From an uncultured Coriobacteriia bacterium (GTDB lineage Bacteria > Actinomycetota > Coriobacteriia > Coriobacteriales > QAMH01), in NCBI GenBank assembly GCA_949879855.1, contig CATLBX010000003.1, positions 1 through 41,067 of the forward strand: a stretch of DNA of 41,067 bases. The letters are read 5' to 3'. Shown in pieces: positions 6,001 through 21,796 of this stretch (position 1 is the first letter of the stretch; the number at the start of each line of letters is the position of its first letter). The position numbers were made by a program, and so were the translations under genes. Under the pieces are notes generated by a model, which worked only from the letters and a program-made list of their open reading frames with translations, was not told the origin of the DNA and did not search any database.

Positions 6001-9000
6001 GGCAACACCGCCCAGACGCTCTACGCCGTGTGGACGCCGGGCAACGCCGACTACTTCATCGACTACTACAAGGTGCGCGGCGATGGTACCGTCGAGCTCT
6101 ATGATTCCGTGATCCTGACGGGAATCACGGAGCGGACCGTGACCGTCACCGACGAGCAGAAGAACTACCGCATTCCCGAGGGTTACGCCTATGCCGCCGG
6201 CCATAGCGGCGAGGTCCTTTCGGGCGTCGTTACCGGCTGGTCGGGCAACAGGGCGGGCGACACCTCGGGCGCGCTGCACCTCAAGCTCTACTACGAGCCC
6301 ACCAACAGCACCGAGTACCGCGTCGTGCGCTGGGCCGCCACCGGTGACGGCAAGCTCGTGGCCGTCGACGCCAACGGCAACCTCAACTTCGACATCGCCC
6401 TCGAGCCCACTGCCGACGGCAGGCTCGTGCAGCTCGACGCCAAGGGCAATCCCGTTGCCTGGCTCAACGCCGACGGCACGCAGTACGTCATCACGTCCAC
6501 CGAGCATCGCCAGGTGTTTGATGCCGACGGCAATCCCGTCCGACAGCCCGTGATCGGCGAGGACGGCAACCCCGTCAAGGACGAGAGCGGAAACGTCGTC
6601 TACGAGGACGTCTACGAGGACGTTACCGTCTACAACGTCCAGTACCGTTATTGGTCGCTTCTGCCCAACGGCTCCGTCGTCCCGCTGGACGTGGCCGGCA
6701 TCGTCGACGCGACCTTCGGTGCGAAATTCCTCGATGGCAATGGGTGCATCACCTCCACGCTCGACGGCGTCACCTACCACCTGCCGGCGTTTGCCACGCC
6801 GTTCCTCATCGTGCACGCCAACGGCAAGGCCGACGCCATGGCCAATGCCGCCGCGACGACCGATGAGGTCACGGCCAATCCCAACGTCAACGCCCACGAT
6901 AACGTCGCGATCCAGGGCTTCGAGTTTCTGGTGCACGGTTCCACGACGCGTCTGGGCGATGCCGCCGAGACCAAGGTCACGACCGTGGCCCAGGGCTCCA
7001 TCGCCGCCGACGGCAGCCTCGTGCTCACGCTCTACTACTACGCGGTGCGCTCCATGCTCACCTTCGACCCGGGCACCGGCGCCGATGGCAGCACCGTGGG
7101 TAGCTGGTTCAATGGCGAGGACCTTTCGGCCGAGTACATGCCCAACGAGGTCGTGACGCTGCCCACCGGCACCAACCTGCGCCGTCCCGGCTACACGCTC
7201 GCCGGTTGGACCACCATCAAGAACTTCGTCGAGAACATGGGGACAGACCCCCGCTTCTCGATCGGCTCCGACGGCGACAGCCTCGTGGGCGTCGCCATGG
7301 GCCAGACGGCCATCGACCTGCAGGCCTGGCTCGCGACGCTCGGTGGCCAGTACTTCACCACCACCTTCACGATGCCGCGCGGTGCGACCACGCTGTATCC
7401 GGTGTGGCTGCCGCGCAACGACACCGTCTACACCGTCGAGTACTACAAGCATCGCGGCGATGACACCGTCGTGCTCGATGCCACCGTCCAGTACACGGGC
7501 ATGACCGATACGCTCGCCAAGGCCGGCCTCGTCTCCACGGGCATGGTCGACGGCGTCGCGGTCGATGACGTGAACCGCTACGGCACGGCCTTCTACAAGC
7601 TCGTCGACAAGGACGGCAATCCCGTCCTCACGGTGACCGACAAGAACGGCAAGGTCTGGACGGCGCTTCTCAGCTTCAACATCGCCGCCGACGGCTCCAC
7701 CGTCCTCAAGGTCATCTACGAGGCCCAGGAAATCGACTACACCGTCATCTGGTACAAGTTCACCGGTAACGAGGCCTTCGTCGAGGCCAAGACCGAGACG
7801 CGTCGCGGCCTGGTCGACGGCCCCGTGTCGGTCACCGATGCCGACCTCAAGGTCGCCTTCGACGGCTACAAGTACTATCCCGGCTTCTCGCTCAGGGGCC
7901 AGCGCGAGCTCCTCTCCGCCGACATCGCCTCCGACGGGTCCACCATCCTCAAGATCTTCTACGAGGCCCAGGACGTCACGCTCTTCCTCGACCTCGGCAG
8001 CTTCGGTGCCTGGTCGGGCCAGGAGCACGACGCCGACAAGTACAAGGCCGACCGTACGGTCAAGCTCTCCACGCTCGTCGAGCGCCCCGGCTATGACTTC
8101 ATCGGCTGGGCTTCCATCGCCGACGGCAAGGATACGAAGGGCAGCGCTTCGATCACGTTGGCCGATGCGATGCTCAAGGCGCTCAACGACGCCATCGCCG
8201 CCGGCACGACGACGCTCGATGCCAACGGCAACATTGTGTTCGCCTATGATGGCTCCGGCATCACCCTCATCCTCGCCAGCGGCGACGGCAACTACACGCT
8301 CGGCGCCGTCAACGTCACGCTCTATGCGGTGTGGAAGGCGCGCAACGATAGCGTCTACACCGTGCAGCACTACCGCGTCACCGGCGACGGCACGCTCAAG
8401 CCGGTCATCACCGATACCTACACGGGCATCACCGACGATCCCATCAACGTCAGCGCCGAGCATTACGACTACGTGGCGGGCACGGGCAACACGGCGGGTA
8501 ACGTCGCCGCGTTCCAGGGCTACGCCTACGCCCCCGGCTTCAGTAAGGTAATCGGGGGACAGACCCTCGCCGAAATCGCCGCGGGCACGATCCTCGCCGA
8601 CGGTTCCCTCGTGCTCAAGCTCTATTACGAGGCCATCGACCAGTCCATCACGCTCAACACCGGCGCGGGCGCGTGGAACGGTAGCGAGAACTTCTACAAC
8701 GCCACCTGGAACGCGGACAAGACGCAGGGCGTCGATAACACCGTCAAGACCGAGACGACGCTCACCGTTCCGAGCCGCGATTCCGCATCGCGTCCGGGCT
8801 ACACGCTCGTCGGATGGACGACGATTACCACCTACGACATCGTGGGCGGCAAGATCACCGCCGGCTCGCGTTACAACATCGCCGACGCGACCGGCCAGAC
8901 CGCGCGCGACGTGGTTGCGTGGCTCGAGAGCCTCAACGCCGCGCTCGCCGCCAATCCCATCACGGGGGGGACAGACCCCAACGCCGGACGCCAGTACTTC

Positions 9001-12000
9001 GCCTGCGGCACTTCCTTCGTGCTGCCGGCCGGTGGTGCGACGCTCATCGCCGTGTGGCAGGCCAACACCAACACGACCTACACCGTCGAGCACCATAAGC
9101 TCGTGATGGATGCCGCCGGCAACGTCGTCGACACGATCGTGCTCACCGAGAACCTCACCGGCATCACCGACGAGCAGGTCACGGGCATCGCCCAGACCTA
9201 CGCCGGCTACACCTTCGTGGCCAACGGGCAGACGGCCTACCCCGGCCAGGCCTACGTGACCTTCGCCCAGGGCACCATCGCCGGTAACGGCAGCCTCGTG
9301 CTCAAGCTCTACTACCGTGCCAACACCAACACGAAGTACACGGTCGAGCGCTGGATCGCGAGCGCCGACGGCAAGCAGCTCACCAAGGTCGACGAGAAGG
9401 TCCTGACGGGCACCACTGACACCTCCGTCACGCCCGGCTCCACCAATCCGCTGGGCTACACCCTCGATAACAGCTTCGTGCCCTCCACGATCTCGGGTAC
9501 GGGCGCGTGGCCCAACGCGGCCATTCCGACCGCCATCATCGCCGGTGACGGCACCACGAGGATCATCCAGTTCTACGTGCCCATCGACGTGCTCTACACC
9601 GTCGAGTTCTATCGCTACACCGGTGACGGCAAGGTCCTGCCCTTCAATGGCTTCGAGGCCAGCGCCGGCAAGAACTACGCCGAGTTCATCGCCGGAGGGT
9701 CTGTCCCCGTCTTCATCGCTGGCACCTCCACCGGTGCGGCCACCAACGTGATCAAGGGCTGGGGCAAGACCTCCTCGACGCTGTCGGTCGACCGCCCCGC
9801 CGGCATCAGCGCCTCGGCCGGATTCACCTACGCGCACCTCAACCTCTCGGCCGCCGAGAACGCCAACTTCATCGGCTACACCTATGACGAGGCCTTCGAG
9901 CAGGTCATCGGTGGCGTCACGTACAAGACGATCGCCCAGGGCGTCATCCTCGCCGACGGCAGCCTGGTGCTGAAGCTGTTCTACGTGCCCGAGACGCTCT
10001 CGGTCACCTACAACACCGGCAGCGCCTCCACGACGGTCACCTTCCAGAAGAACCACACGTCGGAGTCGACCTTCAAGCTGCCGCTCGAGACCACCGAAGG
10101 TCCGGTCGTCGACCGCGCCGGGTACACGCTGGTGGGCTGGACCGTCGCGAGTCACTACACCGGGTCGGGCACGGCCGAGAGCCCGTTTGCGCTGGCCGCC
10201 GCCAACGCCGCCGGCGCCAAGTCCATCAGCGCCGCCACCGGCTACGAGGCCCAGCGCCTCGCCGCCTGGCTCGCAACGTTGGGGACAGACCCCGACTTCG
10301 CGACGCATTGGGGACAGACCCTCACGCCCGATCTGGCCGCCCAGATGGGCAAGACCTACTACGCTCAGGGCTCGTCCTTCAAGATCGGCGTGCTGTCGAT
10401 GAACCTGTACGCGGTCTGGACGCCCACGGGCACCACCGAATACACGGCCGACATCTACAAGATCAAGGGCGACGGCACGATGGAACTCGTCGGCACCAAG
10501 ACCTACACCAACGGCGTTGCCGACGAGGACACCAACACGCTGGCCAAGCTGCCTGCCCAGAGCAGCGCGGACGTCTACGACAAGTCGCTCGACACCGAGT
10601 TCGGCCTGGCCGGCTATCGCTGGGTCGCCTCCACCGAGGATGGCCAGACCATCGACGCCGGCATGCCGGCCAACACCATCGCCCACGCCATCGTCAGCGC
10701 CAACGGCACCACCAAGCTCATCTTCATCTTCAGGGCCATCGAGGTCGAGTTCCAGGTCAAGCGCTACCGCGTCGACGGCGACGGCAACATCATCGAGGTC
10801 GATGTCGACGGCAATGACATCACCGACGATGCCACCGCCAAGCGCTTCACGCACAAGGGTCTCACCGACGCCAACGTCAACGTGACCGCCACGGCCGATG
10901 ACATGGCCGGCACCGATGCCAGTGGCTTCAAGGGCGGCTGGTACTACTTCATCGACAACCTCGACAACGTCGGCATGGTCACCGCTCTCGACGGCAGCCT
11001 CATCGCGGCCTTCACCTATGACGCGACCTACGCCGGCAACCTGTCCACGGGCGTCATCGCCGGTGACGGCAGCCTCGTCCTCAAGCTCTTCTACCTGCCC
11101 GGCAACTTCACCTTCGCGCTGGATCCCGGTGCCGGCACGTGGGGGACGGACCTCTTCGACGCGGCCCAGACCCAGGAGGGCACGCTCGAGACCACGACGA
11201 GCATCTGGTATCGCCACTACGGTGCCAGCACCACCATCACGCTTCCCACGGCCAGCGAGCTCACGCGCGAGGGCTACGTGCTCGCGGGCTGGATGGTCGG
11301 CAACGACGTCGAGAACGCGATGCGCTTCGACGTGCTCGGTCCGGTCATCACCTACACCATGCCGGTGGGCGAGGTCATGCTCAGGCCGATTTGGACCGGC
11401 CTCGAGACGGCCTACATGGTCTATCACGTCAAGGTGCGCGGCGACGGCACGCTCGAGTACTACATCGGCTCCAACAAGGTGGCCGCCGGCACCGGCGAGA
11501 TCGTCCGCGGCACCACCGGCCTGACCGCGCAGGTGACCGCCAACAGCTACGCCGGCTACGAGGCCATCGCCGACCTCGTGAGCTACACCTACGTTGGCGC
11601 CGACGGCATCAGCCACACGGTCACGACGGCCGCCAACGTGCTCATTGAGTGGGGCGGCGCCTTCGACGGTGTCAACAAGGGCAAGACCGCGGTCTACATC
11701 TACTACAAGCCGCTCGTCGTGAAGTACACGGTCGAGCACTGGGCCATCTCCGGCGACGGCACGCTCTACGCCATCGACGCGGACGGCAACCTCCTGCGCG
11801 ATGCCAACGGCAACCTCGTGGCGAGCCCCAACGCCGTGCGCGGCGAGCACGAGGGCTACTCTGACGCCCACATCTACGTCCTAGGGTCTGTCCCCGCTGA
11901 TGCGGTCGCGGGCACCTACACGACCTATAGCCCCTGGAGCATCGCCGGTTACGAGTACGTGCTCGGCACCATCGCGAGCATCAACGGCAAGGGTCCGTGG

Positions 12001-15000
12001 ACCGATGGCATGCTGACGAGCGGCATCTACGTCGCGCCCGACGGCACGCTCGTCCTCAAGCTCTACTACGTCGCCAAGAACCTGACGCTCACCTACGACC
12101 CGGGCGCCAACGGTTCCATCACCGCCGGTGGCAATCAGGGGACAGACCCCGTCGATGTCACGCATCGCGCCGACCACACCTTCAAGCTGCCCGCAGCCAC
12201 CGATGAGAAGCTCACCGTGAGCCGTCCGGGCTACGTGCTCAAGGGCTGGACGACGCTCATGAGCTACGGCGTCGCCGCCGATGGCAGCATCGTCTCGGCC
12301 GATACCGCCGGCGCCATCGTCAAGCTCATCGCCGACGCCAAGGGCGCCGAGGCCGAGGCCGTCATCGCCTGGCTCGAAAAGCTGGGGACAGACCCCCAGG
12401 GCCGTCCGTACTACTACCTCAACGGCGCGACCTTCCTCATGCCCACCGCCAACGAGACCCTGTACGCGGTCTGGACGCCGCGCTCCGACATCGTCTACAC
12501 CGTCGAGCACTGGCTCATCACCGGCGATGGCACCTTCTCGCCGCTGGACAAGAACGGCAACGTCATCCGCGACGCCAACGGCGCGCTCGTCACCGGCACG
12601 CCCAACACGAGCGCCGACGCCTCCGACACCACCAACGCGGCCTACCGCGTCACCTACAACAACGGCAAGTCCGACGTCGTCTTCGACCTCGACGCCATCG
12701 GCGGCTACACCCGCACGGTCGCCGGCTACACCTACCTGCTCAACAACGCGAGCTTCACCATCGCGGGCGCGACGGGCACCACCTACGCCGTGAAGACGAT
12801 CAGCGCCGACGGCAAGACGGTCTTCTACCTGTTCTACCGTGCCAACGAGAACACGATCCGCTTCGAGGTCGGTTCGCTCGGCACCATCGACGGCGGCACG
12901 CTCGACGCGACCGAGAACGTCAACTTCATCACGCAGAAGCACTACACCGACGACAGCTTCGACCTGGCAGATGTTCCCACCCCGACGCGTCCCGGCTACG
13001 ACTTCCTCGGCTGGACCATCGCCGACAAGAAGGGGACAGACCCCATCAACGACGCGATGGGCTACACCGCCCAGCAGATCGTCACCTGGCTCGAGGCCCA
13101 GAACGCGGGCAAGGGGACGTACCTCAAGCTTTTCTTCAAGTCGGGCACGAACTTCACCTACCTCACGCCGACCGGCGACATCATCCTGCGCGCCGTGTGG
13201 ACGCCGCAGCTCGTCGACTACACGATCAATCGCTGGAAGGTCACCGGTAACGGCGACAAGGTTGAGCTCGACTCCGTCACCTACAAGGGCTACGCCGACA
13301 CCGAGGTCCGCTTCGATGCCGCCAAGACCGAGTACAAGGACGGCATCACTTACCTCAAGGTCGACGTGCCCACGGGCTATCGCTTCCTGGCCGCGGGTAC
13401 GAGCGAGATCTACACCGGCACCAACAAGCTGACCCAGTCGTTCAGGACCGACGCCTACGGCAACGTCCTTCCCAACGGCACGGCGAAGTTCACGCTCTGG
13501 TACCTGCCGAAGACCTTCAAGCTCGAGCTCGAGCTCGGCACCTTGGGTACCTGGAACGACACCACGACGGGCACCAACACCGGCACGCTGAAGACCGTCG
13601 AGTATGACGCGGAGTCCGTCCACGAGATGCTCGGCTACCTCTCCGCGAGCCGTCCGGGCTATACCCTCGTTGGTTGGTCGTCCAGCGACTTCAGCGCGCT
13701 CAAGGGCGAGGCGTCGCAGGCCAAGTGGCTCGAACTCGCCGCCTCGGTTGTCGGCGCGGACTGGGTGCGCGTCACCACGGTCCTGAAGTCCGATGCCACG
13801 GGCACGTCGCTGACCGGCTACACCTACGCCTACATCGCCAACAGCTACGAGAACATCAAGTACATGTACACGATGGGTCTCGCGGGCGTGAAGTTCTACG
13901 CCGTGTGGCGCGCCAACGACGACACGGTCTACTACGTCGACCACGTCCGCTGGGAGGGCAACAGCACCGCCAAGACCACCATCACCGAAGAGTTCCGCGG
14001 CATGACCGACAAGAACTACACGGCCACCCCGTTCAACACCATGCTCGCCGATCCGCGCTTCAACACCAGCTTCACCGGCTACGGCTACAACGGCACGGAT
14101 CCCAAGCCCAGCACGGCCACGAAGGCGGTCACCGGCGACGGCACCATGCGCATCACGCTCAACTACTTCGCCCAGAAGCTCAACCTCACGCTCGAGTCCA
14201 CCGGCGGCACCTGGTCGACGACCTGGAATCCCGAGCACCTGACCGAGTCGAGCTTCAACCTGCCGACCAACGCCGACATCAAGCGCCCGGGCTACACGCT
14301 CGTGGGCTGGTCGACCACCAATCCCGACGATGGCCTGACTGGCAACATCAAGGGCCTCGCCTCGCAGGTCAAGGCCGGCCAGCTCGCGGCGATCACCGGC
14401 AACGACACCGCCAACGGCGGCGCCAACTGGATCACGGTCGCCACGACTTCCGACGGCAAGACCTACGTCTTCGTCACGCCGGGCTACAAGATGCCAACGA
14501 GGGGACAGACCCTGTACGCCGTCTGGTACGCCAACAACGACACGAAGTACGCGGTCGAGCGCTGGGTCGTCTCCGGTGACGGCGTCCGCTACGCCCTCAA
14601 GGCCGACGGCACGCTCGAGCGCGACGCCAACGGCCTGCTCGTGACCAGTGACAAGGCCGACAGCGCTCATTCGCTGAGCTACGTGGGCACCACCGACGAG
14701 GAGGCGTGGGCCGACGCCATCGACGGCTCCATCGTCTACCGCACGAACGACACCCTGCTCACCATCACCGGCTACGCCTATGCCGCCGATGGCGAGACGA
14801 TCGTCGCCAAGGACGGCGTCGTGACGATTGGGGGACAGACCCTCAAGACCGACGCCCGCGCGACCATCACCGGCGACGGCAAGATGACCCTCGTGCTCTA
14901 CTTCAAGCCGCTGCAGTTCACGCTCGACTTCTACATCGGCGCGACGAGCACGCCCAACCTGAGCGCCACGCCGGCGCGGGCCACGCTCTATGCCGACCAG

Positions 15001-18000
15001 ACCTACACGCTGCCCACCTCGACGGTGACGCGTAGCGGCTACACGCTCAAGGGCTGGACGAACAGCCAGTACGCGAGCGGTGTCGATGCGGCCACGATCA
15101 TCTCCGACCTCAAGGGCATCAAGTCCCAGAACGCCTACACGGCCGTGAGCGCCAGCACGGGCCGCGACGCCGTGACCGGCAAGGTCTTCACCGCCGTGAC
15201 AAGCGGGGGACAGACCCTCTACATCATGCCGACGGGCAACGTGACGCTCTACGCCACCTGGCGCGCCAACGACGACACGCAGTACCTCGTCGAGCGCTGG
15301 GTCGTCTCCGGCGATGGCACCCGCTATGCGGTCACCTCCGACGGCAAGCTCATCCGCGATACCAACGGCAAGCTCGTGACCAGCTCGACTGCCGATGCGA
15401 GCCACGTCGTCAAGCACGTGGGCATCACCGACGAGGAGGCCTGGGCCGACGCGAACGTGGCCGGAACGAGCTACCGCAACGACGATTCCGCGCTCACCTT
15501 CGCCGGCTACGCCTTCGCGGCCAACGGCGAGACGGTCATCGCCAAGGACGGCGCGACCGCCTTCACCACCATCGCCCGCAAGGTCATCACCGGCGACGGC
15601 AAGATGGTCCTCGTGCTGTACTACAAGCCCAAGCTCAACACCATCACCTTCAACTTCGGCAGCGGCACGAGCACCGGCGCGCCCGCGACGATGCAGGTCT
15701 ACACCGACCAGACCGTCGAGCTGTCCGCCGATGCCGAGCGCACGGGCTACGACCTGGTCGGCTGGTCCAACGTCTCGACCTACAGCGTGAAGGTCGACGG
15801 CGCCACCACGGCCACGACCGTCAACGTCGGCACCTCCAAGGGCCTGGCCTCCCAGGCCGCCGCCGACGCGGCCAAGGCCAATACCAAGCGCACCTCCGAC
15901 AAGGGCGCCGCCTTCACCGCCGTGACAATCGGGGGACAGACCCTCTACATCATGCCGACCGACGCGAGCATCACGCTCTACGCCACCTGGCGCGCCAAGT
16001 CCGACACCGTCTTCTACGTCGACCGCTACAAGGTCACCGGTGACGGCGTGGTCGTGCCCATCGACGCGAACGGCAAGGACCTCGCGGCCCTCGTCTCGCT
16101 GCGCTTCACCGGCGTCACCGACGAGACCGCCACCGCCGGCGCCAAGAGCGGCCCGAAGCCCTGGAACACCGCCGCCTACGGCACCCTGGCCGGCTACTAC
16201 ACGATCGCCAACGGCACGAGCGACCGCGTCATGCTCAAGGACGGCAGCGGCTACGTCGTCATGACCACCATCAGCGCCGGCGTCATCGCCGGTGACGGCA
16301 GTCTGCACCTCGTCGTCTACTACTTCCCGCTGGCAGACCGCGTCCTCGACCTCGACGTCGGCGACGGCACCTGGGAGCCCGGCAAGGAATCCCAGTACAG
16401 CGGCAACAAGCACGCCACCGAGTCGAGCTTCACGCTGCCCACCAACGCCGACGTCAAGCGCCCGGGCTACACGCTCGTGGGCTGGGCCATCGACAAGAAC
16501 GGCCTCATGGCCGCCGGAAAGGACACCGCCAAGGGCGCGGCGTCGCAGAAGTCCTACCTCACGCTCGCCGCCGGCAAGACCGGTTACATCGCCGATGGCG
16601 GCGCCGAGTGGATCGCCGTGATTTCCGGCTACGATGCGTCGACCTTCACCTACACCTTCATCGGCGCCGATGACGTCATCTACGTCATGCCCACGAACGC
16701 CAAGGTCATGCTGCGTGCCGTGTGGCGCGCCAACGACAACACGCCGTATTACGTGTCGCGTTGGGGCATCAACGGCGATGGCATCGCCTTCCCGTTCAAG
16801 CAGGACGGCACGGTCGACATGAACGGCGACCAGATCGTGATTCATGACGATCCTGCGTGGATCAAGGCCAACTACGTCGTCCACTACGGCATCACCGACG
16901 AGATTGCCTGGGCCGATGCGAACGTCGACGGCGTCTCCTATCGCAACGCCGACAACATCGAGGTGAACGGCTACAGGTACCTCCCGACCGACGATCCCGC
17001 GTTCGACTCGATCGGCGGCAGCCTCAACACGATGGCCCGCGCGGTCATCAAGGCCGATGGCAGCATGGTGCTCATGCTCTACTACAACGCCAAGGACAAC
17101 ATCACCTACTCCGTCTACCACGTGCGCGTCACCGGTGACGGCACGGTCAAGAACCTCGTCAAGCAGGAGTTCATGAAGAAGAACAACTCCTACGTCACCG
17201 TCGACAACCTCGATTACAACGGCCTCGACGACAGCCGCTTCCTCGGCTACGAGTACGTCGACTCCATCGTCATCAACGGCGTCACCTACTACTCGCATAT
17301 TGCCGGTAACGTCTACGACGGCCTCATCCTGTATCGCTACTACAAGGCCATCTACGACGAGGGTGACAAGGGCATCCACCTCGAGCTCAATCCCGGAATG
17401 GGCATCTGGGTGAACACCGGCGAGTCCACGCCGTCGATGATTCCCGGCACCTCGAACAGCTCGCACGACACCTTCGCCGCCGAGACCACGATCACGCTTC
17501 CGGGCGCCGACCAGCTCTATCGTCCCGGCTACGAGTTTGTCGGATGGTCCGACATGCCCGACGGTGCGGATGCGAAGGGCAACTACTCCGTGATCACGTC
17601 CGACCACCTGATGAGCGTCGATCCCGAGACGGGCCAGTACACCGATGTGCTGCGCGCCCTCATCATGAGCCTGCTCTCGCAGCGCATGGAGGATGCCGAG
17701 AACAGGGCGATCGAGGTCGATGGCGACAACCCGACCTACAAGTTCCTCGACCATCTCTACATCGCGCCCGACGGCAAGTTCCTCGTCCCGACCAAGACCA
17801 TCAGGCTCCACGCGATCTGGCGCGCCCGCACCGACACGAAGTACACGGTCAGCCATTGGTGGGTCGACCAGTACGGCGTGGCGCACGAGATCGAGGACAG
17901 CAGGCTCAACCTCGAGGGCATGACCGACGAGAACGTGTACGGCTCCAAGCTCGACGACAACCATGAGGCCGTCGCCGGTTACACGTACGTGAAGGAATAC

Positions 18001-19776
18001 CAGGGCGCGATCGTGCTCGTGCGCGACAAGAACGGAAACGCCGTCCAGGAGACCGACGAGTACGGCAACCCGCTGTTCAATGCCGATGGCCTGCCCATCT
18101 TCAAGTACGCCTACCAGCCGGCCATCGACGCGTTCGGCACGCTGCTCGCCCGCGGCATCGAGTTCGACAACCTCAACGGCGACGGCAGCACGCACCTGCG
18201 CTTCTACTACATCGCCAACAACAACACGAGATACTACGTCGAGCGCTGGGTCATCACCGGTGACGGCACGCTCGTGCCGCTCAAGGCCGACGGCACCGTT
18301 CCCCATGACGCGAACGGCAACCTGCTCGTCCACGACGCGAAGTGGGCCGAGGGCCAGCGCCTCGTCTACGTCGGCTTCACCGGCGAGATGGCGTGGGCGG
18401 ACGGCGTCGACGCGAGCGTGACCTACCGTCATCTCGATAACATCCCGGTCCTGGGCTACACCTACCTCCCGCACGGCCAGAGCGTGACAATCGGGGGACG
18501 TACCTTCACGACCCAGGCGCGCGCGATGATCGCGGGCGACGGCTCGACGGTCCTGGTCCTCTACTACGTCTTCGACGAGTCGACCCTCGTCCTCGACCCC
18601 GCCAACGGCCTCTGGACCAACACCGATGGCAAGGAGGGGACAGACCCCGCATGGTCGACTGGCAACCTGGGGACAGACCCCGACGCGCCGCGCAAGACGC
18701 TCGAGCAGCTCATCGCCGAGCAGATCGCCGCCGCTACCAAGGTGCTCTATGCCGCCGGCGGCAACATCGCCCTCGACGATCCGCGTCGCCTGCCCATCAC
18801 GCTCAAGTACGGCACCGATGCCCAGATCATGCTCCCGACCGCCGACCAGCTCCTGCGCAACGGCTACGTTCTCATCGGCTTCGTCGACGGCAACGGCAGG
18901 CAGTACGCGCCCGGCTACATCTTCACGATGCCCAGCTCCAGCATCAGGCTCATGGCCCTGTGGGCTCCCATCATCTACACCATCACCTTCGACAAGAACG
19001 ATGACGTGGCGACCGGCGCCGCGCCCGAGCAGCGCTACGAGTACGGCTCGGCGGGGACGCGCCTTGACGACGTCGATTTCGAGCGCCGCAACGGAACGCT
19101 CCTCGGATGGGCGTTCTCGCCCGACGCGGCCAGGCCCGACTTCACCGTCGGCCAGCTGATGTCGGCCCTGCTCGAGAGCGGCGTGCTCGGCCTCGTGAGG
19201 GGCGATGGCATCGACGATCCCGCGACGGCCATGTACCTGCTCGCGGCCATGGCCGGCAATGGCGGCAACGCCATCAAGCTGTATGCGATCTGGGACGTCG
19301 AGCGCCACGTCGCGGGCCTCGAGGGCTTCGAGCCCGATGTCGATGACTTCGGCCACTTCGTCACCGAAGGCGAGTATCCGGGAGGCAAGATCACGATTGA
19401 TTCGGATGGCGTCGAGCCGGGCTTCACGCTCTCGCCCGATGACGTCCTGATCGAGCTCAACCCGGACTACTACATCAAGGGCTGGAACGTGATTCGCGAT
19501 GGCGTGACCACTTACATCGAGGGCGCCGACGCGATCTTCTCGGTGACGATGGACAGTGACGTGATTTTCGCCCCGGTCTTTGGCAACTATGCCGAGGAGG
19601 AGGCCGAGGAAAGGGCACGTTACCTCGCGCAGCTCGCTGCGTACGGGACGCCCAGGACCGGTGATGACGTCATGGGCACGATGGGTCACGAGGCCGCGGT
19701 CGGGCTGCTGGCACTCCTCATTCTGGTTCTGCTCATCCGCCGTCGCAGGCAAGAGACGCCAAGCCGGGGACGATAG
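1..19776 (+). CDS. Giant cell-wall-anchored surface protein/adhesin, 5'-truncated by the window edge; Listeria-Bacteroides (InlB B-type) repeats alternating with MucBP-like modules
   Basis: Frame 1 is open from nt 1. Codons 1-7 (PGRGWYL) already continue the repeat signature, so the GTG at 22 is not the true start. The stop is TAG 19774-19776. By eye there are roughly 25-30 copies of the signature (R)PGY.(L/F).GW...DG....Y..G......LYA(V/T)W. Between them are paired ~90-130 aa modules that begin ..Y.V..(Y/W)...GDG and end DGS.VL.LYY. The C-terminus has a TPRTG motif, a hydrophobic helix and an RRRR tail. Confidence 0.9.
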   Translation, partial: PGRGWYLVGWDVTYVTGDGSVNTQTGLDVNAPATFQILGPTTFLARWKEAIIVNYLPGDHAADGAFPDPAVENETIFTHVAPLGKFPAYANSIGALPEGAVDADGASWYFAGWEIHWKLRGQEGYVGDAVSIFQVDLSQVADLTVVFPGKAEGDERVYDIDVIALWAPADYYVIFDANEPEGADAHTGIMPPKQGFLFDSKIALTNNAYVVSGYTFAGWNTKADGTGTSYADGAVTGILESFSDWFSTDPEKTLKLFAQWTAKTYDVTVDLRDGAPGTLSAGTSGVKDFIAQTITLGTASHVVYVATETYGVGVESAINLVVNKGYRLAGWEWSAVKDDGTTVTGTVTVDDGDANFGLGKLTVLGTVTAYAVFEQLSSVSYLPGDHGNWTGTATTGGTGTFFDDIRIGSAVPTFGTGNDALLVDVPGLGKLPGADDDSNWLFNGWRGSDGKVYANYVIPTDVLVTAGGMTFTALWVAKDQTLTLNANGGAFANGTADTITAIAKTDVTLPGTTDVVLTGWILDGWSLAAGGAILYAPGETIKMPTAPTTLFAHWKQDYVEVSYEVKADGSNYYGHITGPAGAGNGIVWVEQTVSDPRGTYVPAYADPSYDKLVNIKGTQSLSAVSGDALDPANLSNMLYAGPFTLTANAFEGYRFVRWVDEDGNEVSTNPSLLVTRDTLTGRYKAHTYYAIFAELESVTIDYTVSDSNVVWVDFATEAVPPVSGNPRTNVAHVSAGYVIEGWYDAAGNKVGSGDSFTPSRGADGMYVAGSYVVRVIPKTDTPFVIEYWLQDTTGAFVKDAASTVNGTGSTDLVLTINADGTISGVPADGVITLPAGNLILSFAGHSFSASASTLTGAIAADGSLALKLYYTNNTLTNPTIIYNAGTGGSVTLGSEQIDITVTPIPSPIGSTPVAAPGYQFSHWQVGDDPDMQLNIGISSLFTPPTPDGGWLEKTVYAYTAIFIELPSITINYVAGTGGSVSLGSESVRPATGTPAGSLATANSGYAFDHWEDEFGNVVMYDATNKAPAHLVPPRNADGVFVATTYTAIFVALPVDYTVQHYKVDRYGNVTLVRTDTDQAYAGTTVTATPIDTTADGLWAGYTYAPGHSGEVSVGVVMVNPTLVLKLYYTANSDTPYVVYRYQLDGNGVFTQLPSESYTGYTDDTVTTTPNVPVGYQLVADGTYASGILAGIPTQLATQLAGMFTGDGKLVLIHVFEAVKVQYVVNYWKIPGSALTQGDPLSFKAPAAPSQTFYDYTGVRVTAVPPSIPGYTYVLPSAHREMYPSVDTGVVLGDGTLVLNLYFEADYHTLTLVPNTGAGAGTWAPGYSAFGSTLLRSETETTLPTTTHLRNPGYTFKGWATENGGAVVHAPGATIAIGTADITLYAVWEANTDTPYTIERYQLNADGTITKLPNLTGTGTTGESVTTVPVAPDGYQVPTTDYITGLWDGNPVYRIDEILTGVITGDGKLKLVHVFIPVAGNYVVKIFKVDGMGNAIQVDVDGNELAAGDVLLEGYKHAGAVGSNVIVDSASATDTPGFIYHAYASNPPRGYSYLGDAVSFVVNGKTYLTIASGVIGDQTLELVIYFEPNTYELTYVTGDPTDPDAGKWVGAGDSSPATQFGYELNVPANGTLAVVTRTGYELLGWTTVATYSVRADGTIVAAGTDGLDVKEIVNARGQEAIDVATWLATLAAGTYYAAGDTFKMPANDMSLYAVWTPTLTNYYVNRYSVAKDGSVTLIDSVTRTAPTHTTAAATDADKEIVGQFYRVPGGAEPSSIDSVLITPDGLAMIKLYFDVTADTEYTVEFLRYTGTGLIEPINAFKANATSAGGAAVYDETATANPSGADTNMLLFRGYANTRIYVDQNGTDTQLIYYNNCLAKIAAAAITGYAYDATFSTVIDGKTYTTMATGIIGAGGALKLTLVFAAQQNDLIYDVNAAEDAAKGNAGWVISDQSPKPAPRTGSTVTLPDATTLYRFGYVFGGWNTMADGSGDTYAAGASFVTGNTAQTLYAVWTPGNADYFIDYYKVRGDGTVELYDSVILTGITERTVTVTDEQKNYRIPEGYAYAAGHSGEVLSGVVTGWSGNRAGDTSGALHLKLYYEPTNSTEYRVVRWAATGDGKLVAVDANGNLNFDIALEPTADGRLVQLDAKGNPVAWLNADGTQYVITSTEHRQVFDADGNPVRQPVIGEDGNPVKDESGNVVYEDVYEDVTVYNVQYRYWSLLPNGSVVPLDVAGIVDATFGAKFLDGNGCITSTLDGVTYHLPAFATPFLIVHANGKADAMANAAATTDEVTANPNVNAHDNVAIQGFEFLVHGSTTRLGDAAETKVTTVAQGSIAADGSLVLTLYYYAVRSMLTFDPGTGADGSTVGSWFNGEDLSAEYMPNEVVTLPTGTNLRRPGYTLAGWTTIKNFVENMGTDPRFSIGSDGDSLVGVAMGQTAIDLQAWLATLGGQYFTTTFTMPRGATTLYPVWLPRNDTVYTVEYYKHRGDDTVVLDATVQYTGMTDTLAKAGLVSTGMVDGVAVDDVNRYGTAFYKLVDKDGNPVLTVTDKNGKVWTALLSFNIAADGSTVLKVIYEAQEIDYTVIWYKFTGNEAFVEAKTETRRGLVDGPVSVTDADLKVAFDGYKYYPGFSLRGQRELLSADIASDGSTILKIFYEAQDVTLFLDLGSFGAWSGQEHDADKYKADRTVKLSTLVERPGYDFIGWASIADGKDTKGSASITLADAMLKALNDAIAAGTTTLDANGNIVFAYDGSGITLILASGDGNYTLGAVNVTLYAVWKARNDSVYTVQHYRVTGDGTLKPVITDTYTGITDDPINVSAEHYDYVAGTGNTAGNVAAFQGYAYAPGFSKVIGGQTLAEIAAGTILADGSLVLKLYYEAIDQSITLNTGAGAWNGSENFYNATWNADKTQGVDNTVKTETTLTVPSRDSASRPGYTLVGWTTITTYDIVGGKITAGSRYNIADATGQTARDVVAWLESLNAALAANPITGGTDPNAGRQYFACGTSFVLPAGGATLIAVWQANTNTTYTVEHHKLVMDAAGNVVDTIVLTENLTGITDEQVTGIAQTYAGYTFVANGQTAYPGQAYVTFAQGTIAGNGSLVLKLYYRANTNTKYTVERWIASADGKQLTKVDEKVLTGTTDTSVTPGSTNPLGYTLDNSFVPSTISGTGAWPNAAIPTAIIAGDGTTRIIQFYVPIDVLYTVEFYRYTGDGKVLPFNGFEASAGKNYAEFIAGGSVPVFIAGTSTGAATNVIKGWGKTSSTLSVDRPAGISASAGFTYAHLNLSAAENANFIGYTYDEAFEQVIGGVTYKTIAQGVILADGSLVLKLFYVPETLSVTYNTGSASTTVTFQKNHTSESTFKLPLETTEGPVVDRAGYTLVGWTVASHYTGSGTAESPFALAAANAAGAKSISAATGYEAQRLAAWLATLGTDPDFATHWGQTLTPDLAAQMGKTYYAQGSSFKIGVLSMNLYAVWTPTGTTEYTADIYKIKGDGTMELVGTKTYTNGVADEDTNTLAKLPAQSSADVYDKSLDTEFGLAGYRWVASTEDGQTIDAGMPANTIAHAIVSANGTTKLIFIFRAIEVEFQVKRYRVDGDGNIIEVDVDGNDITDDATAKRFTHKGLTDANVNVTATADDMAGTDASGFKGGWYYFIDNLDNVGMVTALDGSLIAAFTYDATYAGNLSTGVIAGDGSLVLKLFYLPGNFTFALDPGAGTWGTDLFDAAQTQEGTLETTTSIWYRHYGASTTITLPTASELTREGYVLAGWMVGNDVENAMRFDVLGPVITYTMPVGEVMLRPIWTGLETAYMVYHVKVRGDGTLEYYIGSNKVAAGTGEIVRGTTGLTAQVTANSYAGYEAIADLVSYTYVGADGISHTVTTAANVLIEWGGAFDGVNKGKTAVYIYYKPLVVKYTVEHWAISGDGTLYAIDADGNLLRDANGNLVASPNAVRGEHEGYSDAHIYVLGSVPADAVAGTYTTYSPWSIAGYEYVLGTIASINGKGPWTDGMLTSGIYVAPDGTLVLKLYYVAKNLTLTYDPGANGSITAGGNQGTDPVDVTHRADHTFKLPAATDEKLTVSRPGYVLKGWTTLMSYGVAADGSIVSADTAGAIVKLIADAKGAEAEAVIAWLEKLGTDPQGRPYYYLNGATFLMPTANETLYAVWTPRSDIVYTVEHWLITGDGTFSPLDKNGNVIRDANGALVTGTPNTSADASDTTNAAYRVTYNNGKSDVVFDLDAIGGYTRTVAGYTYLLNNASFTIAGATGTTYAVKTISADGKTVFYLFYRANENTIRFEVGSLGTIDGGTLDATENVNFITQKHYTDDSFDLADVPTPTRPGYDFLGWTIADKKGTDPINDAMGYTAQQIVTWLEAQNAGKGTYLKLFFKSGTNFTYLTPTGDIILRAVWTPQLVDYTINRWKVTGNGDKVELDSVTYKGYADTEVRFDAAKTEYKDGITYLKVDVPTGYRFLAAGTSEIYTGTNKLTQSFRTDAYGNVLPNGTAKFTLWYLPKTFKLELELGTLGTWNDTTTGTNTGTLKTVEYDAESVHEMLGYLSASRPGYTLVGWSSSDFSALKGEASQAKWLELAASVVGADWVRVTTVLKSDATGTSLTGYTYAYIANSYENIKYMYTMGLAGVKFYAVWRANDDTVYYVDHVRWEGNSTAKTTITEEFRGMTDKNYTATPFNTMLADPRFNTSFTGYGYNGTDPKPSTATKAVTGDGTMRITLNYFAQKLNLTLESTGGTWSTTWNPEHLTESSFNLPTNADIKRPGYTLVGWSTTNPDDGLTGNIKGLASQVKAGQLAAITGNDTANGGANWITVATTSDGKTYVFVTPGYKMPTRGQTLYAVWYANNDTKYAVERWVVSGDGVRYALKADGTLERDANGLLVTSDKADSAHSLSYVGTTDEEAWADAIDGSIVYRTNDTLLTITGYAYAADGETIVAKDGVVTIGGQTLKTDARATITGDGKMTLVLYFKPLQFTLDFYIGATSTPNLSATPARATLYADQTYTLPTSTVTRSGYTLKGWTNSQYASGVDAATIISDLKGIKSQNAYTAVSASTGRDAVTGKVFTAVTSGGQTLYIMPTGNVTLYATWRANDDTQYLVERWVVSGDGTRYAVTSDGKLIRDTNGKLVTSSTADASHVVKHVGITDEEAWADANVAGTSYRNDDSALTFAGYAFAANGETVIAKDGATAFTTIARKVITGDGKMVLVLYYKPKLNTITFNFGSGTSTGAPATMQVYTDQTVELSADAERTGYDLVGWSNVSTYSVKVDGATTATTVNVGTSKGLASQAAADAAKANTKRTSDKGAAFTAVTIGGQTLYIMPTDASITLYATWRAKSDTVFYVDRYKVTGDGVVVPIDANGKDLAALVSLRFTGVTDETATAGAKSGPKPWNTAAYGTLAGYYTIANGTSDRVMLKDGSGYVVMTTISAGVIAGDGSLHLVVYYFPLADRVLDLDVGDGTWEPGKESQYSGNKHATESSFTLPTNADVKRPGYTLVGWAIDKNGLMAAGKDTAKGAASQKSYLTLAAGKTGYIADGGAEWIAVISGYDASTFTYTFIGADDVIYVMPTNAKVMLRAVWRANDNTPYYVSRWGINGDGIAFPFKQDGTVDMNGDQIVIHDDPAWIKANYVVHYGITDEIAWADANVDGVSYRNADNIEVNGYRYLPTDDPAFDSIGGSLNTMARAVIKADGSMVLMLYYNAKDNITYSVYHVRVTGDGTVKNLVKQEFMKKNNSYVTVDNLDYNGLDDSRFLGYEYVDSIVINGVTYYSHIAGNVYDGLILYRYYKAIYDEGDKGIHLELNPGMGIWVNTGESTPSMIPGTSNSSHDTFAAETTITLPGADQLYRPGYEFVGWSDMPDGADAKGNYSVITSDHLMSVDPETGQYTDVLRALIMSLLSQRMEDAENRAIEVDGDNPTYKFLDHLYIAPDGKFLVPTKTIRLHAIWRARTDTKYTVSHWWVDQYGVAHEIEDSRLNLEGMTDENVYGSKLDDNHEAVAGYTYVKEYQGAIVLVRDKNGNAVQETDEYGNPLFNADGLPIFKYAYQPAIDAFGTLLARGIEFDNLNGDGSTHLRFYYIANNNTRYYVERWVITGDGTLVPLKADGTVPHDANGNLLVHDAKWAEGQRLVYVGFTGEMAWADGVDASVTYRHLDNIPVLGYTYLPHGQSVTIGGRTFTTQARAMIAGDGSTVLVLYYVFDESTLVLDPANGLWTNTDGKEGTDPAWSTGNLGTDPDAPRKTLEQLIAEQIAAATKVLYAAGGNIALDDPRRLPITLKYGTDAQIMLPTADQLLRNGYVLIGFVDGNGRQYAPGYIFTMPSSSIRLMALWAPIIYTITFDKNDDVATGAAPEQRYEYGSAGTRLDDVDFERRNGTLLGWAFSPDAARPDFTVGQLMSALLESGVLGLVRGDGIDDPATAMYLLAAMAGNGGNAIKLYAIWDVERHVAGLEGFEPDVDDFGHFVTEGEYPGGKITIDSDGVEPGFTLSPDDVLIELNPDYYIKGWNVIRDGVTTYIEGADAIFSVTMDSDVIFAPVFGNYAEEEAEERARYLAQLAAYGTPRTGDDVMGTMGHEAAVGLLALLILVLLIRRRRQETPSRGR
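3163..18960 (+). repeat. Intragenic protein-level super-repeat: one LB repeat followed by 1-2 MucBP-like modules, about 16-17 units of variable length
   Basis: The junction LYAVW(T/R/E)(A/P)N(T/D)DT.Y.V(E/D)(R/H)(Y/W) recurs, for example near 4150, 5140, 6030, 7400, 8330, 9050, 10410, 12470, 13195, 13900, 14520, 15255, 15985, 16725 and 17815. Units are diverged (neighbouring units about 50-60% aa identity by eye), so this is not a recent perfect DNA tandem repeat. Confidence 0.7.
7239..18681 (+). repeat. 16 in-frame copies of the GGGGACAGACCCC mini-hairpin element inside the giant CDS, plus 2 degenerate copies
   Basis: Core start positions are 7239, 8554, 8964, 9697(-), 10281, 10310, 11884(-), 12138, 12384, 13032, 14501, 14830, 15205, 15931, 18636 and 18669. 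Degenerate copies are at 11141 and 18493. They translate as GTDP or GGQTL in forward orientation and GSVP in reverse. I saw none in nt 1-7238. Confidence 0.85.
19645..19773 (+). other. Candidate sortase sorting signal (LPXTG-variant TPRTG, TM helix, positively charged tail)
   Basis: The C-terminal sequence is ..AAYG-TPRTG-DDVMGTMGHE-AAVGLLALLILVLLI-RRRRQETPSRGR. TPRTG is encoded at 19648-19662. Confidence 0.55.
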
Positions 19777-19778
19777 GC

Positions 19779-19938
19779 GGGGGACAGACCCTCGGCAGGC
19801 GGGGGACAGACCCCCGCTTCGTCCGCCGGTGAAAGAATGGGGACAGACCCCCGATTGCCAGCTCCCATATCCGCCGGTGAAAGAATGGGGACAGACCCCC
19901 GCTTCGTCCGCCGGTGAAAGAATGGGGACAGACCCCCC
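19779..19938 (+). repeat. Cluster of 5 mini-hairpin elements immediately after the giant gene stop codon
   Basis: Cores are at 19779, 19801, 19839, 19887 and 19924. The last three share the composite unit ccgccggtgaaagaatGGGGACAGACCCCCgcttcg, with 48- and 37-nt spacing. Confidence 0.9.
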
Positions 19939-20769: not shown

Positions 20770-20829
20770 GGGGGGGTCTGTCCCCCTATTGCCACCTGCA
20801 GCCGAGTTCTTGATCGGGGGTCTGTCCCC
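20770..20829 (-). repeat. Two reverse-orientation mini-hairpin elements upstream of the RAYT-like gene
   Basis: GGGGGGGTCTGTCCCCC lies at 20770-20786 and GGGGGTCTGTCCCC at 20816-20829. Their reverse complements read ggtggcaataGGGGGACAGACCCCC and ggtgctaatgaGGGGACAGACCCCC. Confidence 0.9.
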
Positions 20830-20998
20830 TCATTAGCACCGAGGCAGTGGAGGCATGGTCGTATCCGCATTTACTCGGAAATCGCTCCGTTTCGACTTCG
20901 ATCGATGTCCGAGATTGCTCAGATTCCCGGGGTGGTTTGCTCGGATGTTTCCGATGTAGCCTATTTCCGCAGAAGGCCTGACGGAAAGGAGGTGCAGT

Positions 20999-21796
20999 GT
21001 GCCGCGCCAGCCACGCAGACAATCGTCAACCGGGTATTACCACATCACGAACCGTGGCGTTGGCAAAGCGCGGGTCTTTAACGACGGCAACGATCACTCG
21101 TTCTTCATAGATTGCCTGCGGCTTGCACAGCGGGTCTGTCGCTTCAAGGTTCTCGCATATTGCATAATGACCACGCATTTCCATATCGTCATCAAGTGCG
21201 AGGGCGCCGTTCCAACATCCCTTTTCCAGAGCATAGGAGCACGGTTTTCGGCCTATTACCACAAGAGGCACAAATGCTCTGGGCAAATATTCCAGGGCCG
21301 CTTTCGCAGCGAGGCAATCGAGACGGACAGACACCTTCTCTCTGCGATTCGCTATGTATGGCGCAATCCCGTCAAGGCCCACCTCTGTTCCTGCTTGGCC
21401 GCCTATCCGTGGAGTAGCTACAATTTTCTGGGCAAGTCGGGTGGCTTAATCGACGACGAGCTTCTTTGCAGCTTCATGAGCGCCGATGAGTGGAGGGCCT
21501 TCGCGTTGCAGGAAGTGGACGACCGCCATCTCGAGCCTTTTTCCCTGCGACTGTCGGACAGTTCCGCTCGGAAGCTGGTTCGTGAAGGGTGCCGGCAGTT
21601 CGGCGGTGTGCCAAGGGATGCTCTCGAGAAACCAGAGTGCCCTCCTGCACTTGCCGTGTGCCTGGATGCGGGGATGACCGTGGCGCAAATTGCCAGAATC
21701 CTGAACATCACCGCAACCGGTATGTATCGCGCATTGCGGAAATGGGGCCGGCAGGTTCCGAGGGCATGCACCCTCGAGGCGTCGAGCAGTCCGTAA
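20999..21796 (+). mobile_element. Y1/HUH tyrosine transposase of the IS200-like superfamily, RAYT-like (REP-associated), with a C-terminal HTH region
   Basis: The start is GTG 20999, preceded by GGAAAGGAGG. The HUH motif is H60-F-H62 (TTHFHIVI). The block GQIFQGRFRS is present, and the catalytic-Tyr motif is IR-Y119-VWRNPVKA...YPWSSY. The C-terminal region MTVAQIARILNITATGMYRALRKW looks like an HTH. No TnpB/IS605 orfB partner is present. Confidence 0.8.

Follow-up and report, generated by a model that had tools for sequence, protein, structure and literature searches.

Why does the gene of a giant surface protein carry sixteen in-frame copies of a short repeat that also crowds the non-coding DNA around it? 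This question is raised by a 41,067-nucleotide (nt) stretch of DNA from an uncultured Coriobacteriia bacterium (GenBank assembly GCA_949879855.1, contig CATLBX010000003.1), the whole of which is called the window below. The repeat has the 12-mer GGGGACAGACCC as its core, and we refer to the surface-protein gene as the adhesin gene. A first-pass annotation of the sequence had described the copies in this gene as a mobile repeat of non-coding type that is tolerated, and possibly exploited for loop variation. We find that, once present in the adhesin gene, the core is held at the DNA level despite the codon bias of the gene and despite protein divergence of about 20%. The window also encodes a Y1 transposase resembling RAYTs (REP-associated tyrosine transposases), and an enzyme of this type probably copies the repeat.

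The 12-mer and its copies in coding DNA

The window contains 55 exact and 2 one-mismatch copies of the 12-mer. For dinucleotide shuffles of the window, 0.36 matches with at most one mismatch are expected, and the maximum was 2. The mismatch spectrum is all-or-none, since only 2 further sites differ at two positions, where about 4 are expected by chance. A position profile of the 39 copies located 3′ of the adhesin stop codon extends the element to a longer unit consisting of T-G-A/G-C-A-A at positions −9 to −4, three variable bases, the invariant 12-mer, and two pyrimidines; the usual unit is TGACAA-N3-core-Y. With the revised gene map, non-coding DNA contains 8.5 copies per kb, compared with 0.81 in the adhesin gene and 0.18 in other coding DNA. 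Forward copies outnumber reverse copies by 46 to 9 among the exact matches, and the arrays of the window are direct.

Folding of eight units as single-stranded DNA gave no evidence of a stable stem-loop. Seven have z scores between −0.9 and +0.8, the eighth (z = −1.96) owes its value to a stem specific to its flank, and the only shared element is a GGGG/CCCC stem of 3–4 base pairs. A palindrome or hairpin identity of the units is thus ruled out, and neither a GTAG nor a CGTC end tag was seen in the profile of the 39 intergenic copies. It is correspondingly very unlikely that the repeat acts at the RNA level, as a GGGG-ACAGA-CCCC hairpin affecting mRNA stability, antisense termination, or ribosome pausing. 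Such a role would suit the location of most copies on the coding strand (nearly all genes in the window are forward), the resemblance of the opposite strand of each unit to a weak stem with a T-rich tail, and the finding that the core caps longer perfect hairpins in Firmicutes loci. However, the stem is short, the units fold no better than shuffled sequence, a search of the whole window at Rfam gathering thresholds gave no match, the intergenic arrays sit downstream of good intrinsic terminators, and reverse copies are conserved too. Two other candidate identities were rejected. As a promoter element, the TTGACA-like box lacks a −10 partner and promoter-like sites are not enriched; a phage origin is opposed by the mere 2 matches in 2.9 million viral contigs. 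A full-text literature search for the 12-mer and its complement returned unrelated primer sequences only.

The adhesin frame is open from base 1 of the window to the stop codon at 19774–19776, so the gene begins upstream of the window. Its product matches Pfam Flg_new (E = 3.5e-31), and the C-terminus, with TPRTG, a hydrophobic stretch, and RRRR, resembles a Gram-positive cell-wall sorting signal. Sixteen exact copies lie at 7239–18680 in this one frame, 14 forward and 2 reverse (9697 and 11884), in agreement with the first-pass count. Two 23-nt identities between copies inside and outside the gene (15196–15218 with 40598–40620, and 15923–15945 with 31059–31081), reported in the same annotation, are exact; a third resemblance, of 12124–12150 to 37544–37570, stands as a similarity (26 of 29 positions between 12122–12150 and 37543–37571), its second range having been off by one base. 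The 14 forward copies also carry the upstream box TGACAA at −9 to −4, matching it on average at 4.3 of 6 positions compared with 1.4 for the background of this open reading frame (ORF), a mean reached in 0 of 100,000 resamplings; the two reverse copies consist of the core only. Together, the shared box, the rare codons, and the nucleotide conservation described below indicate that the copies in the ORF are, as previously claimed, true family members and not chance codon strings. Direct reading of the core finds no stop codon in any of its six frames, again as annotated. The adhesin reads it as GTDP eight times, GQT(L) six times, and GSVP twice, but never in the GDRP frame that had been listed with these, which would require an AGA codon and a charged pair.

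We compared the window with orthologous adhesin sequences from five other assemblies (L241, L240, L239, L242, and L243). These form three lineages that are about 80% protein-identical to one another: A, with the window and L241 (99% protein and 98% DNA identity); B, with L240, L239, and L243; and C, with L242. Twelve of the 16 window copies are base-identical in L240 at approximately 80% protein identity, compared with 16.8% of random 12-mers drawn from the same window/L240 alignment (binomial P = 5e-7). Counted over all lineages, the motif is present in at least one of them at 17 adhesin sites, and at least 11 of these are common to all lineages that retain the region. The codons are correspondingly unusual for this gene, in which GGG and GGA account for 4% and 3.6% of Gly, ACA for 1.4% of Thr, and TCT for 1.5% of Ser. 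Copies of the repeat contain 8 of the 11 ACA codons in the gene, and motif codons are used by 8 of its 9 GTDP and all 6 of its GQTL peptides, although the adhesin's own codon usage gives a chance of only about 2.5e-4 that GTDP is written GGG ACA GAC CCC. Rare codons combined with base identity in an orthologue indicate that the DNA word is kept, rather than the peptide.

The reverse order of events, in which GTDP, GQTL, and GSVP were conserved peptides of repeat domains and the DNA identity a by-product or chance, is therefore extremely improbable. At one or two sites, a comparable peptide was already in place: L240 and L243 encode GGTDP with other codons at 8967, and lineage B has a similar GTDA at 7239. 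In addition, GQTLY adjoins the conserved LYAxW end of Flg_new-type repeats. Against this stand the codon choice just described, the absence of drift at synonymous positions inside the copies, and the same 12-mer filling non-coding DNA. The GQTLY copies fall in the variable turn that precedes the conserved LYAxW strand, and only one (14501) of about 13 repeat ends of the (L/F)(Y/F)AxW type carries the motif. Finally, distant homologues with 27–33% identity (Parafannyhessea, Olsenella, and others) do not conserve the copy peptides and often have gaps in their place, including a 5-residue gap at the 13032 site. A protein motif that came first, for which the first-pass annotation had named conservation in distant homologues as the telling sign, thus fails as a general explanation.

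The structural setting of the copies was approached with a model of the residues encoded by 11800–13299, whose mean predicted local distance difference test (pLDDT) score is 56 and which is good for residues 90–230 only. The 12138 copy (residues 114–117) is placed in a β-hairpin turn between two strands, and the 12384 copy (residues 196–199) in a loop straight after a helix with a pLDDT of about 85. For the 13032 copy, the model shows a loop of low confidence. In the usable part of the model, copies at two sites are thus shown in predicted turns or loops, in keeping with the loop setting suggested earlier. The gene is also not a pseudogene, a possibility raised earlier, because an open frame is present in the window and likewise in two independent assemblies, L240 and L241. 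Gene calling divides the orthologous adhesin of L242 (European Nucleotide Archive contig_12766) into eight genes. Extra bases in runs of G or A (for example, GGGGGACAAGACCC) are found at the breaks, which points to long-read homopolymer errors and not to pseudogene decay.

Differences between the lineages are mostly substitutions. At 8967, the window has GGG GGG ACA GAC CCC and L240 has GGT GGC ACC GAT CCC, with the peptide GGTDP in both and no change in length. Also lacking the motif at this site, L239 encodes GGSDP and lineage C (L242) has ACC GGC ACC GAC GTC, or TGTDV. On this alignment, the 8967 copy is a gain in lineage A. At 9697, GGG TCT in the window corresponds to AGC AGC in lineage B, and the sole copy difference between the window and its closest relative, L241, is a point mutation of GAC to GGC at 12138. 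Alignment column 4673 has the motif in lineages B and C, and lineage A differs there at 12 of 23 unit positions between identical flanks. Indels accompany lineage differences only at 7239 (9 nt) and 14831 (15 nt). Insertion by multiples of three, as in Rickettsia palindromic elements (RPEs), is therefore not what is found at 8967, 9697, 12138, or column 4673, where only substitution has occurred. These comparisons of orthologous sequences show that copies in the structured adhesin arise mostly through similar-length replacement at sites that are already compatible.

The central loop of an MFS transporter encoded further downstream behaves differently. This loop varies from about 20 to 64 residues among orthologues. 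The window has two reverse in-frame copies, an orthologue with 79% identity (L252) has four exact reverse in-frame copies, and orthologues with 83% identity (L253 and L254) have none and a loop about 30 residues shorter. As judged from these alignments, the loop units are shown to be true in-frame insertions whose number varies between 0, 2, and 4, and here multiples of three are found.

It is against this pair of genes that the first-pass model for the adhesin, of recent mobile-repeat insertions whose gain and loss diversify surface loops, can be weighed. The model describes the MFS loop well. For the adhesin, it would accommodate the two sites that differ together with 9- or 15-nt length changes, the forward copies that carry the whole unit with its upstream box, and the shorter sequence of distant homologues at some sites. 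However, 12 of 16 sites are identical at approximately 80% protein identity and at least 11 of 17 are found in three lineages; the clearest lineage-specific gains (8967 and 9697) involve no length change; and the window and L241 differ by one point mutation in one copy. The differences are mostly substitutions. The adhesin sites appear old and fixed, and hence not a source of loop variation. We regard recent insertion as an improbable explanation of the adhesin copies. The loop variation that had been proposed is thus seen in the transporter and not in the adhesin, and the orthologue comparison suggested with it returned the two indels above among differences that mostly leave length unchanged.

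The Y1 transposase gene and the core in other genomes

A candidate agent for the copying is the product of the gene at 20999–21796. It matches Pfam Y1_Tnp (25.5 bits, cutoff 23), and the best model is NCBIfam REP_Tyr_transpos (74.3 bits, cutoff 80). Its translation has the Y1 motifs H-F-H (THFHIVI) and Y-VWR-NP, both invariant in an alignment of homologues, and approximately 110 residues beyond the core, where a C-terminal HTH_7 match is weak (20.8 bits, below the cutoff of 23.8). Homologues are named "REP element-mobilizing transposase RayT" by their sources, and some carry Bac_DnaA_C, HTH_23, or MarR_2 matches. A sequence search of the PDB with the Y1 protein gave no match. The architecture is that of TnpA-Y1 subclass 2.1, which corresponds to RAYT group 1 (PMC6006769). 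Genes of this kind, described by Di Nocera et al. as TIRYTs, are flanked by inverted repeats that share GGGGWSAS and not by REP hairpins (PMC3733652). The start of the window core, GGGGACAG, fits this consensus of TIRYT-flanking repeats (PMC3733652; PMC6006769).

The arrangement of copies around the gene is conserved. All five Coriobacteriia relatives with upstream sequence have reverse copies 169–185 nt before the TIRYT gene, and at five loci of other phyla the nearest copy upstream of the Y1 gene is likewise reverse, at 64–201 nt. On the other side, forward copies follow 1432 nt downstream of the TIRYT stop codon, past moeA, and at 1431–1436 nt in six Coriobacteriia lineages. Inverted copies (20774–23297) accordingly bracket the TIRYT gene together with moeA, and the downstream spacing is conserved even in a lineage whose TIRYT is just 52% identical.

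The association extends beyond this group. At 80 metagenome loci fetched by protein alone, GGGGWSAS is enriched 6.5-fold within 300 nt of the gene ends (64 matches; 1.56 versus 0.24 per kb), an independent confirmation of the published signature. When all ORFs of 137 motif-rich loci were clustered, the Y1 family came first among specific families, with 11 loci, and only ABC ATPases and translated arrays outranked it. Where both are present, the nearest copy is usually 50–200 nt from the Y1 gene. The exact 12-mer was rejected as a universal Y1 neighbour, since none of the 80 metagenome loci and none of 5 distant homologues has it nearby; the 8-nt GGGGWSAS alone is general. In one Planctomycetota metagenome-assembled genome (MAG; L238, 3983–3994) the Y1 transposase frame itself overlaps the motif at its 5′ end (MARVRRGDRPG...).

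A relative provides a natural contrast. In L254, whose MoeA is 90% identical, the gene order is the same but no Y1 gene lies between the orf217 homologue and moeA, and one exact copy is present in 15.6 kb, compared with about two dozen in the corresponding stretch of the window. This one copy (L254 position 7506; 25016–25027 in the window), 5′ of tig, is at the same place in all lineages. It may therefore have a function in the leader or promoter of tig, or be the copy from which the family was seeded. Judging by these sequence relationships, we assign the repeat to the window TIRYT as its cognate "TIR-type" family, which the enzyme would recognise.

Outside this lineage, paired copies of the exact 12-mer occur at more than 118 genome loci in very many phyla, with unrelated flanks and G+C fractions from 0.32 to 0.76. 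Stieleria, Treponema, Kiritimatiellia, Gaiellaceae, Streptomyces, Bacillus, Lachnospiraceae, and Muribaculaceae are among the taxa. The genome scan used paired copies because a scan with a single 14-mer is dominated by chance single matches and is uninformative. In 112 motif-fetched loci (L121–L232), one-mismatch variants concentrate at core positions 1, 9, and 12, and positions 2–4 and 10–11 are almost invariant. In 72% of copies at these loci a C follows the core, which makes the conserved word effectively GGGGACAGACCCC.

The layout of the arrays varies by taxon. Several genomes (L209, L198, L212, L140, L219, and L168, the last being Phycisphaera sp. RhM) have tandem arrays, which reach 17 units and have a period of 20, 21, or 24 nt; L140 is labelled Muribaculaceae, yet has a G+C fraction of 0.71. 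Head-to-head dimers were found only in some taxa other than that of the window, such as L142 and L223; those of L142, a Burkholderiales MAG, are palindromic. In Bacillus infantis and a Lachnospiraceae genome (L192 and L145), a longer perfect hairpin is capped by the core. For other phyla, copies within genes were checked in a few low-G+C cases, as stop-to-stop ORFs are too noisy in high-G+C DNA. One of these, in Anaerotignum sp. (L184, 6689–6796; G+C fraction 0.37), has four in-frame copies in a 24-nt tandem array within an ORF with S-layer-homology domains, possibly another surface protein with the repeat, this time from a Firmicute.

We consider it probable that a TIRYT-type enzyme copies short units, that copies in coding DNA are filtered to harmless loop peptides, and that the core is then held; we infer the recognition by the enzyme, the copying mechanism, and the cause of retention. 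In such a process, the enzyme would recognise a core of the GGGG(A/T)(C/G)A(C/G) type and seed or copy short units, and copying would fill almost every intergenic gap with arrays. Events in coding DNA would survive only if the frame is kept and the turn or loop peptides (GTDP, GQTL, GSVP, and GLSP) are harmless. Free linkers could take whole units, and structured domains would acquire the word by similar-length replacement. The core might afterwards be held because it is a DNA signal under selection or because copying recurs.

Several observations weigh against this account. Decayed copies are scarce, which is atypical for neutral selfish repeats. Because the units fold no better than shuffles, there is no evident counterpart here to the way in which IS200/IS605 and RAYT enzymes are known to recognise hairpins. 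The exact 12-mer is absent within 3–4 kb of 85 more distant Y1 homologues (5 distant and 80 metagenome loci), and a crude identity tree reveals no motif-specific Y1 clade, with motif-associated and non-associated proteins interleaved. These two results suggest that the 12-mer marks part of the family or that the association is indirect. L254 is a single contrast, and a Y1 gene could lie elsewhere in its genome. The case for recognition of the core by the Y1 protein is one of association in the sequence. Finally, copies that appear without any change in length sit awkwardly with copying of units.

Some of these observations would be expected if the 12-mer were instead a self-standing selected genomic signal, such as an uptake-type sequence, a polar recombination or segregation signal, or a nucleoid-protein site, with the Y1 gene merely a frequent neighbour. 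The overall density of approximately 1.3 copies per kb, the all-or-none mismatch spectrum, and the bias toward forward copies would be in character, as would the many Y1 homologues without an exact copy nearby. The in-ORF copies, made by substitution at compatible peptides and conserved at synonymous sites, fit as well, since uptake sequences in the coding regions of Neisseria and Haemophilus are likewise made by substitution and synonymously conserved. Nevertheless, many phyla have the core, each time between unrelated flanks, whereas uptake and Chi sequences are lineage-specific, and its intergenic arrays run to 17 tandem units. The Y1 gene is enriched beside arrays and GGGGWSAS at Y1 gene ends, and the motif is nearly gone in the relative without the Y1 gene. 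We therefore think it unlikely that the signal stands by itself and retain copying by a TIRYT-type enzyme as the preferred account.

A broader proposal, which we advance only tentatively and with more doubt than belief, is that GGGGACAGACCC(C) is the long-missing cognate DNA word of a widespread branch of the group-1 RAYTs (TIRYTs), and that it forms a second DNA-level code laid over coding sequence by a domesticated transposase. If this were true, one word of 12–13 nt would have been kept from Treponema to Actinobacteria at more than one copy per kb, and selection or active re-copying would maintain it strongly enough to override codon preference in essential and surface-protein genes.

On a more immediate level, the lineage offers a testable group-1 RAYT/TIRYT system in which the 12-mer is defined, the gene has a fixed locus, and a relative lacking both occurs in nature. 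A repeat family of non-coding type can evidently constrain synonymous sites and codon choice in genes over long periods, which matters for analyses of codon usage, of the ratio of nonsynonymous to synonymous substitution rates (dN/dS), and of recoding, as well as for synthetic gene design. The adhesin and the MFS loop appear to separate two routes, same-length replacement in structured domains and in-frame unit insertion in free linkers. The 12-mer is also a simple metagenome marker for such systems and a likely cause of assembly breaks.

Features of the window

The coordinates of the genes and copies discussed here are collected in Table 1. The start of the MFS gene is probably near 27779, because orthologues start there.

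Table 1. Genes and repeat copies in the 41,067-nt window (in-ORF copies are those of the adhesin gene; lineages A, B, and C as defined in the text).
Feature	Position	Strand	Remarks
Giant surface-protein (adhesin) gene, 5′-incomplete in the window	1–19776	+	at least 6591 codons; Flg_new / InlB B-repeat domains
In-ORF copy, ENM-GTDP-R	7239–7250	+	carried by lineages A and C; GGC ACC GAT GCC (GTDA) in lineage B, which is 9 nt shorter at the upstream box
In-ORF copy, VIG-GQT-LA	8555–8566	+	identical 12-mer in 6/6 orthologous sequences
In-ORF copy, TG-GTDP-N	8967–8978	+	apparent lineage-specific gain; L240 and L243 encode GGTDP as GGY GGM ACC GAY CCC
In-ORF copy, G-GSVP-V	9697–9708	-	AGC AGC GTC CCC in lineage B, no indel
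Two in-ORF copies 29 nt apart	10281–10321	+	encode LGTDPDFATHWGQTL; in lineages A and B; region deleted in lineage C
In-ORF copy, L-GSVP-A	11884–11895	-	common to lineages A, B, and C; one mismatch in L243
In-ORF copy, Q-GTDP-V	12138–12149	+	predicted β-hairpin turn; common to lineages A, B, and C; lost in L241 by GAC to GGC
In-ORF copy, L-GTDP-Q	12384–12395	+	predicted loop right after helix; identical in 6/6 sequences
In-ORF copy, K-GTDP-I	13032–13043	+	predicted loop after GW strand; lineages A and B; decayed in L243 (1 mismatch) and L242 (2)
In-ORF copy, R-GQT-LYAVW	14501–14512	+	turn before last strand of Flg_new-type repeat; identical in 6/6 sequences
In-ORF copy, IG-GQT-LK	14831–14842	+	lineages A and C and L243; absent in L240 and L239, region 15 nt shorter
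In-ORF copy, SG-GQT-LYIMPT	15206–15217	+	one of two paralogous modules; common to lineages A, B, and C
In-ORF copy, IG-GQT-LYIMPT	15932–15943	+	module paralogous to 15206; lineages A and B
Two in-ORF copies 33 nt apart	18636–18680	+	encode EGTDPAWSTGNLGTDPD; common to lineages A, B, and C
Five-copy array	19780–19935	+	immediately 3′ of adhesin stop codon; three units here in related strain L233
Two reverse copies	20774–20829	-	169 and 213 nt upstream of TIRYT gene
RAYT-like Y1 (HUH) transposase gene	20999–21796	+	265 amino acids; TIRYT / RAYT group 1 / TnpA-Y1 subclass 2.1 type by profile scores and motifs
Three forward copies	23229–23297	+	3′ of moeA; terminator 23181–23204 comes first
Copy over final codons of gene 23418–24248	24229–24240	+	...MTIGGQTPN*; position also occupied in L233
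Two intergenic copies 5′ of trigger-factor gene	24906–25027	+	copy at 25016 is the sole one kept in TIRYT-less L254
Four-copy intergenic array	26524–26671	+	3′ of trigger-factor terminator
MFS transporter gene	~27779–29050		two reverse in-frame copies in central cytoplasmic loop
Two in-frame reverse copies, MFS central loop	28405–28447	-	encode EGLSPN and QGSVPA
Four-copy intergenic array	29057–29190	+	
One reverse copy, then five-unit array	31019–31267		one unit with mismatch; 47/94-nt period
Four-copy intergenic array	36289–36410	+	preceding 4Fe-4S gene ends at 36246
Three-copy intergenic array	37486–37570	+	one copy with mismatch
Three intergenic copies	40608–40808	+	3′ of 4Fe-4S gene 40030–40521

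Some further features of the window concern other genes. On the reverse strand, 26796–27350 is a real gene for an FKBP-type isomerase (Pfam 1.5e-13), as opposed to the longer plus-strand ORF at 26676–27308, and the plus-strand ORF at 40145–40858 is probably spurious. Two tandem operons of the dimethyl sulfoxide (DMSO) reductase family, each with a molybdopterin and a 4Fe-4S subunit, occupy 33463–40521. The operons are separated by genes for a TorD-like chaperone and a DUF1883 protein, and motif arrays separate the operon parts. Just 5′ of the molybdopterin oxidoreductase gene starting at 33463, about 11 tandem units of the 9-nt repeat CTGGCGCAC, for which periods of 18 and 36 were scored as well, are located at 33308–33438.

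Relation to known repeat systems

The closest published system is that of the TIR-associated tyrosine transposases (TIRYTs) and their TIRtrons (Di Nocera 2013, PMC3733652), which are the RAYT group 1 of Bertels (2017) and the TnpA-Y1 subclass 2.1 of Quentin (2018). This is the largest RAYT group and was present in about 15% of strains in Quentin et al., who found no repeats for subclass 2.1. The window resembles TIRtrons in its Y1/HUH protein with Y-x3-NP and a putative C-terminal helix-turn-helix extension (a weak match here, below the cutoff), in the inverted copies that bracket the gene, which belong to a non-hairpin repeat with a core in agreement with GGGGWSAS, and in the genome-wide dispersal of the repeat as singles, pairs, and clusters. 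It differs in abundance, as the published families are "moderately abundant" and the density here reaches 8.5 copies per kb of non-coding DNA. It differs further in a core of 12–13 nt conserved across many phyla, in a bracket that takes in moeA besides the transposase gene, and in in-frame genic copies that are conserved at the nucleotide level.

REP/REPIN–RAYT systems of E. coli, Pseudomonas, and Stenotrophomonas likewise combine a single-copy, vertically inherited Y1 gene at a fixed locus with hundreds of short, clustered intergenic repeats, and REP_Tyr_transpos is the best protein model here (74 bits). However, the repeat in the window has no 20–40-bp palindrome and no GTAG tag, and it forms mostly direct arrays, not inverted doublets, with no cloud of mutated copies around them.

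The copies in the adhesin had been called unusual in the first-pass annotation. That judgement was overstated, as intragenic REPs and in-frame Rickettsia palindromic elements are already published (PMC3733652). Repeats of non-coding type that lie in frame at residue-tolerant positions are known from both (Ogata 2000; Di Nocera 2013), and the copies in the MFS loop behave in this way. RPEs, though, are palindromic insertions of 100–150 bp that add 20–50 residues, and the core here encodes four. Moreover, most adhesin copies show no length change relative to orthologues, and their rare codons are maintained.

The DNA uptake sequences of Neisseria, the uptake signal sequences of Pasteurellaceae, and cyanobacterial HIP1 offer a different parallel. 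Each is a short exact word found about once per kb, placed in genes in frames with acceptable peptides, made by substitution, and conserved as DNA. These words are lineage-specific, are not tied to a Y1 transposase gene, and form no tandem intergenic arrays, and we know of no link to competence for the repeat in the window. Restriction to one lineage does not apply to the paired core, which is spread over the many phyla listed above.

Given that in-frame genic repeats and the GGGGWSAS flanks of TIRYT genes have been published, the finding is not categorically new. As far as the literature we searched shows, in which just two papers name TIRYT, what had not been described comprises the cross-phylum core of 12–13 nt, its extreme density, and the lack of decayed copies; its conservation within a gene against codon bias through approximately 20% protein divergence; the substitution-type origin of new copies; and the contrast with a relative without the gene and the repeats.

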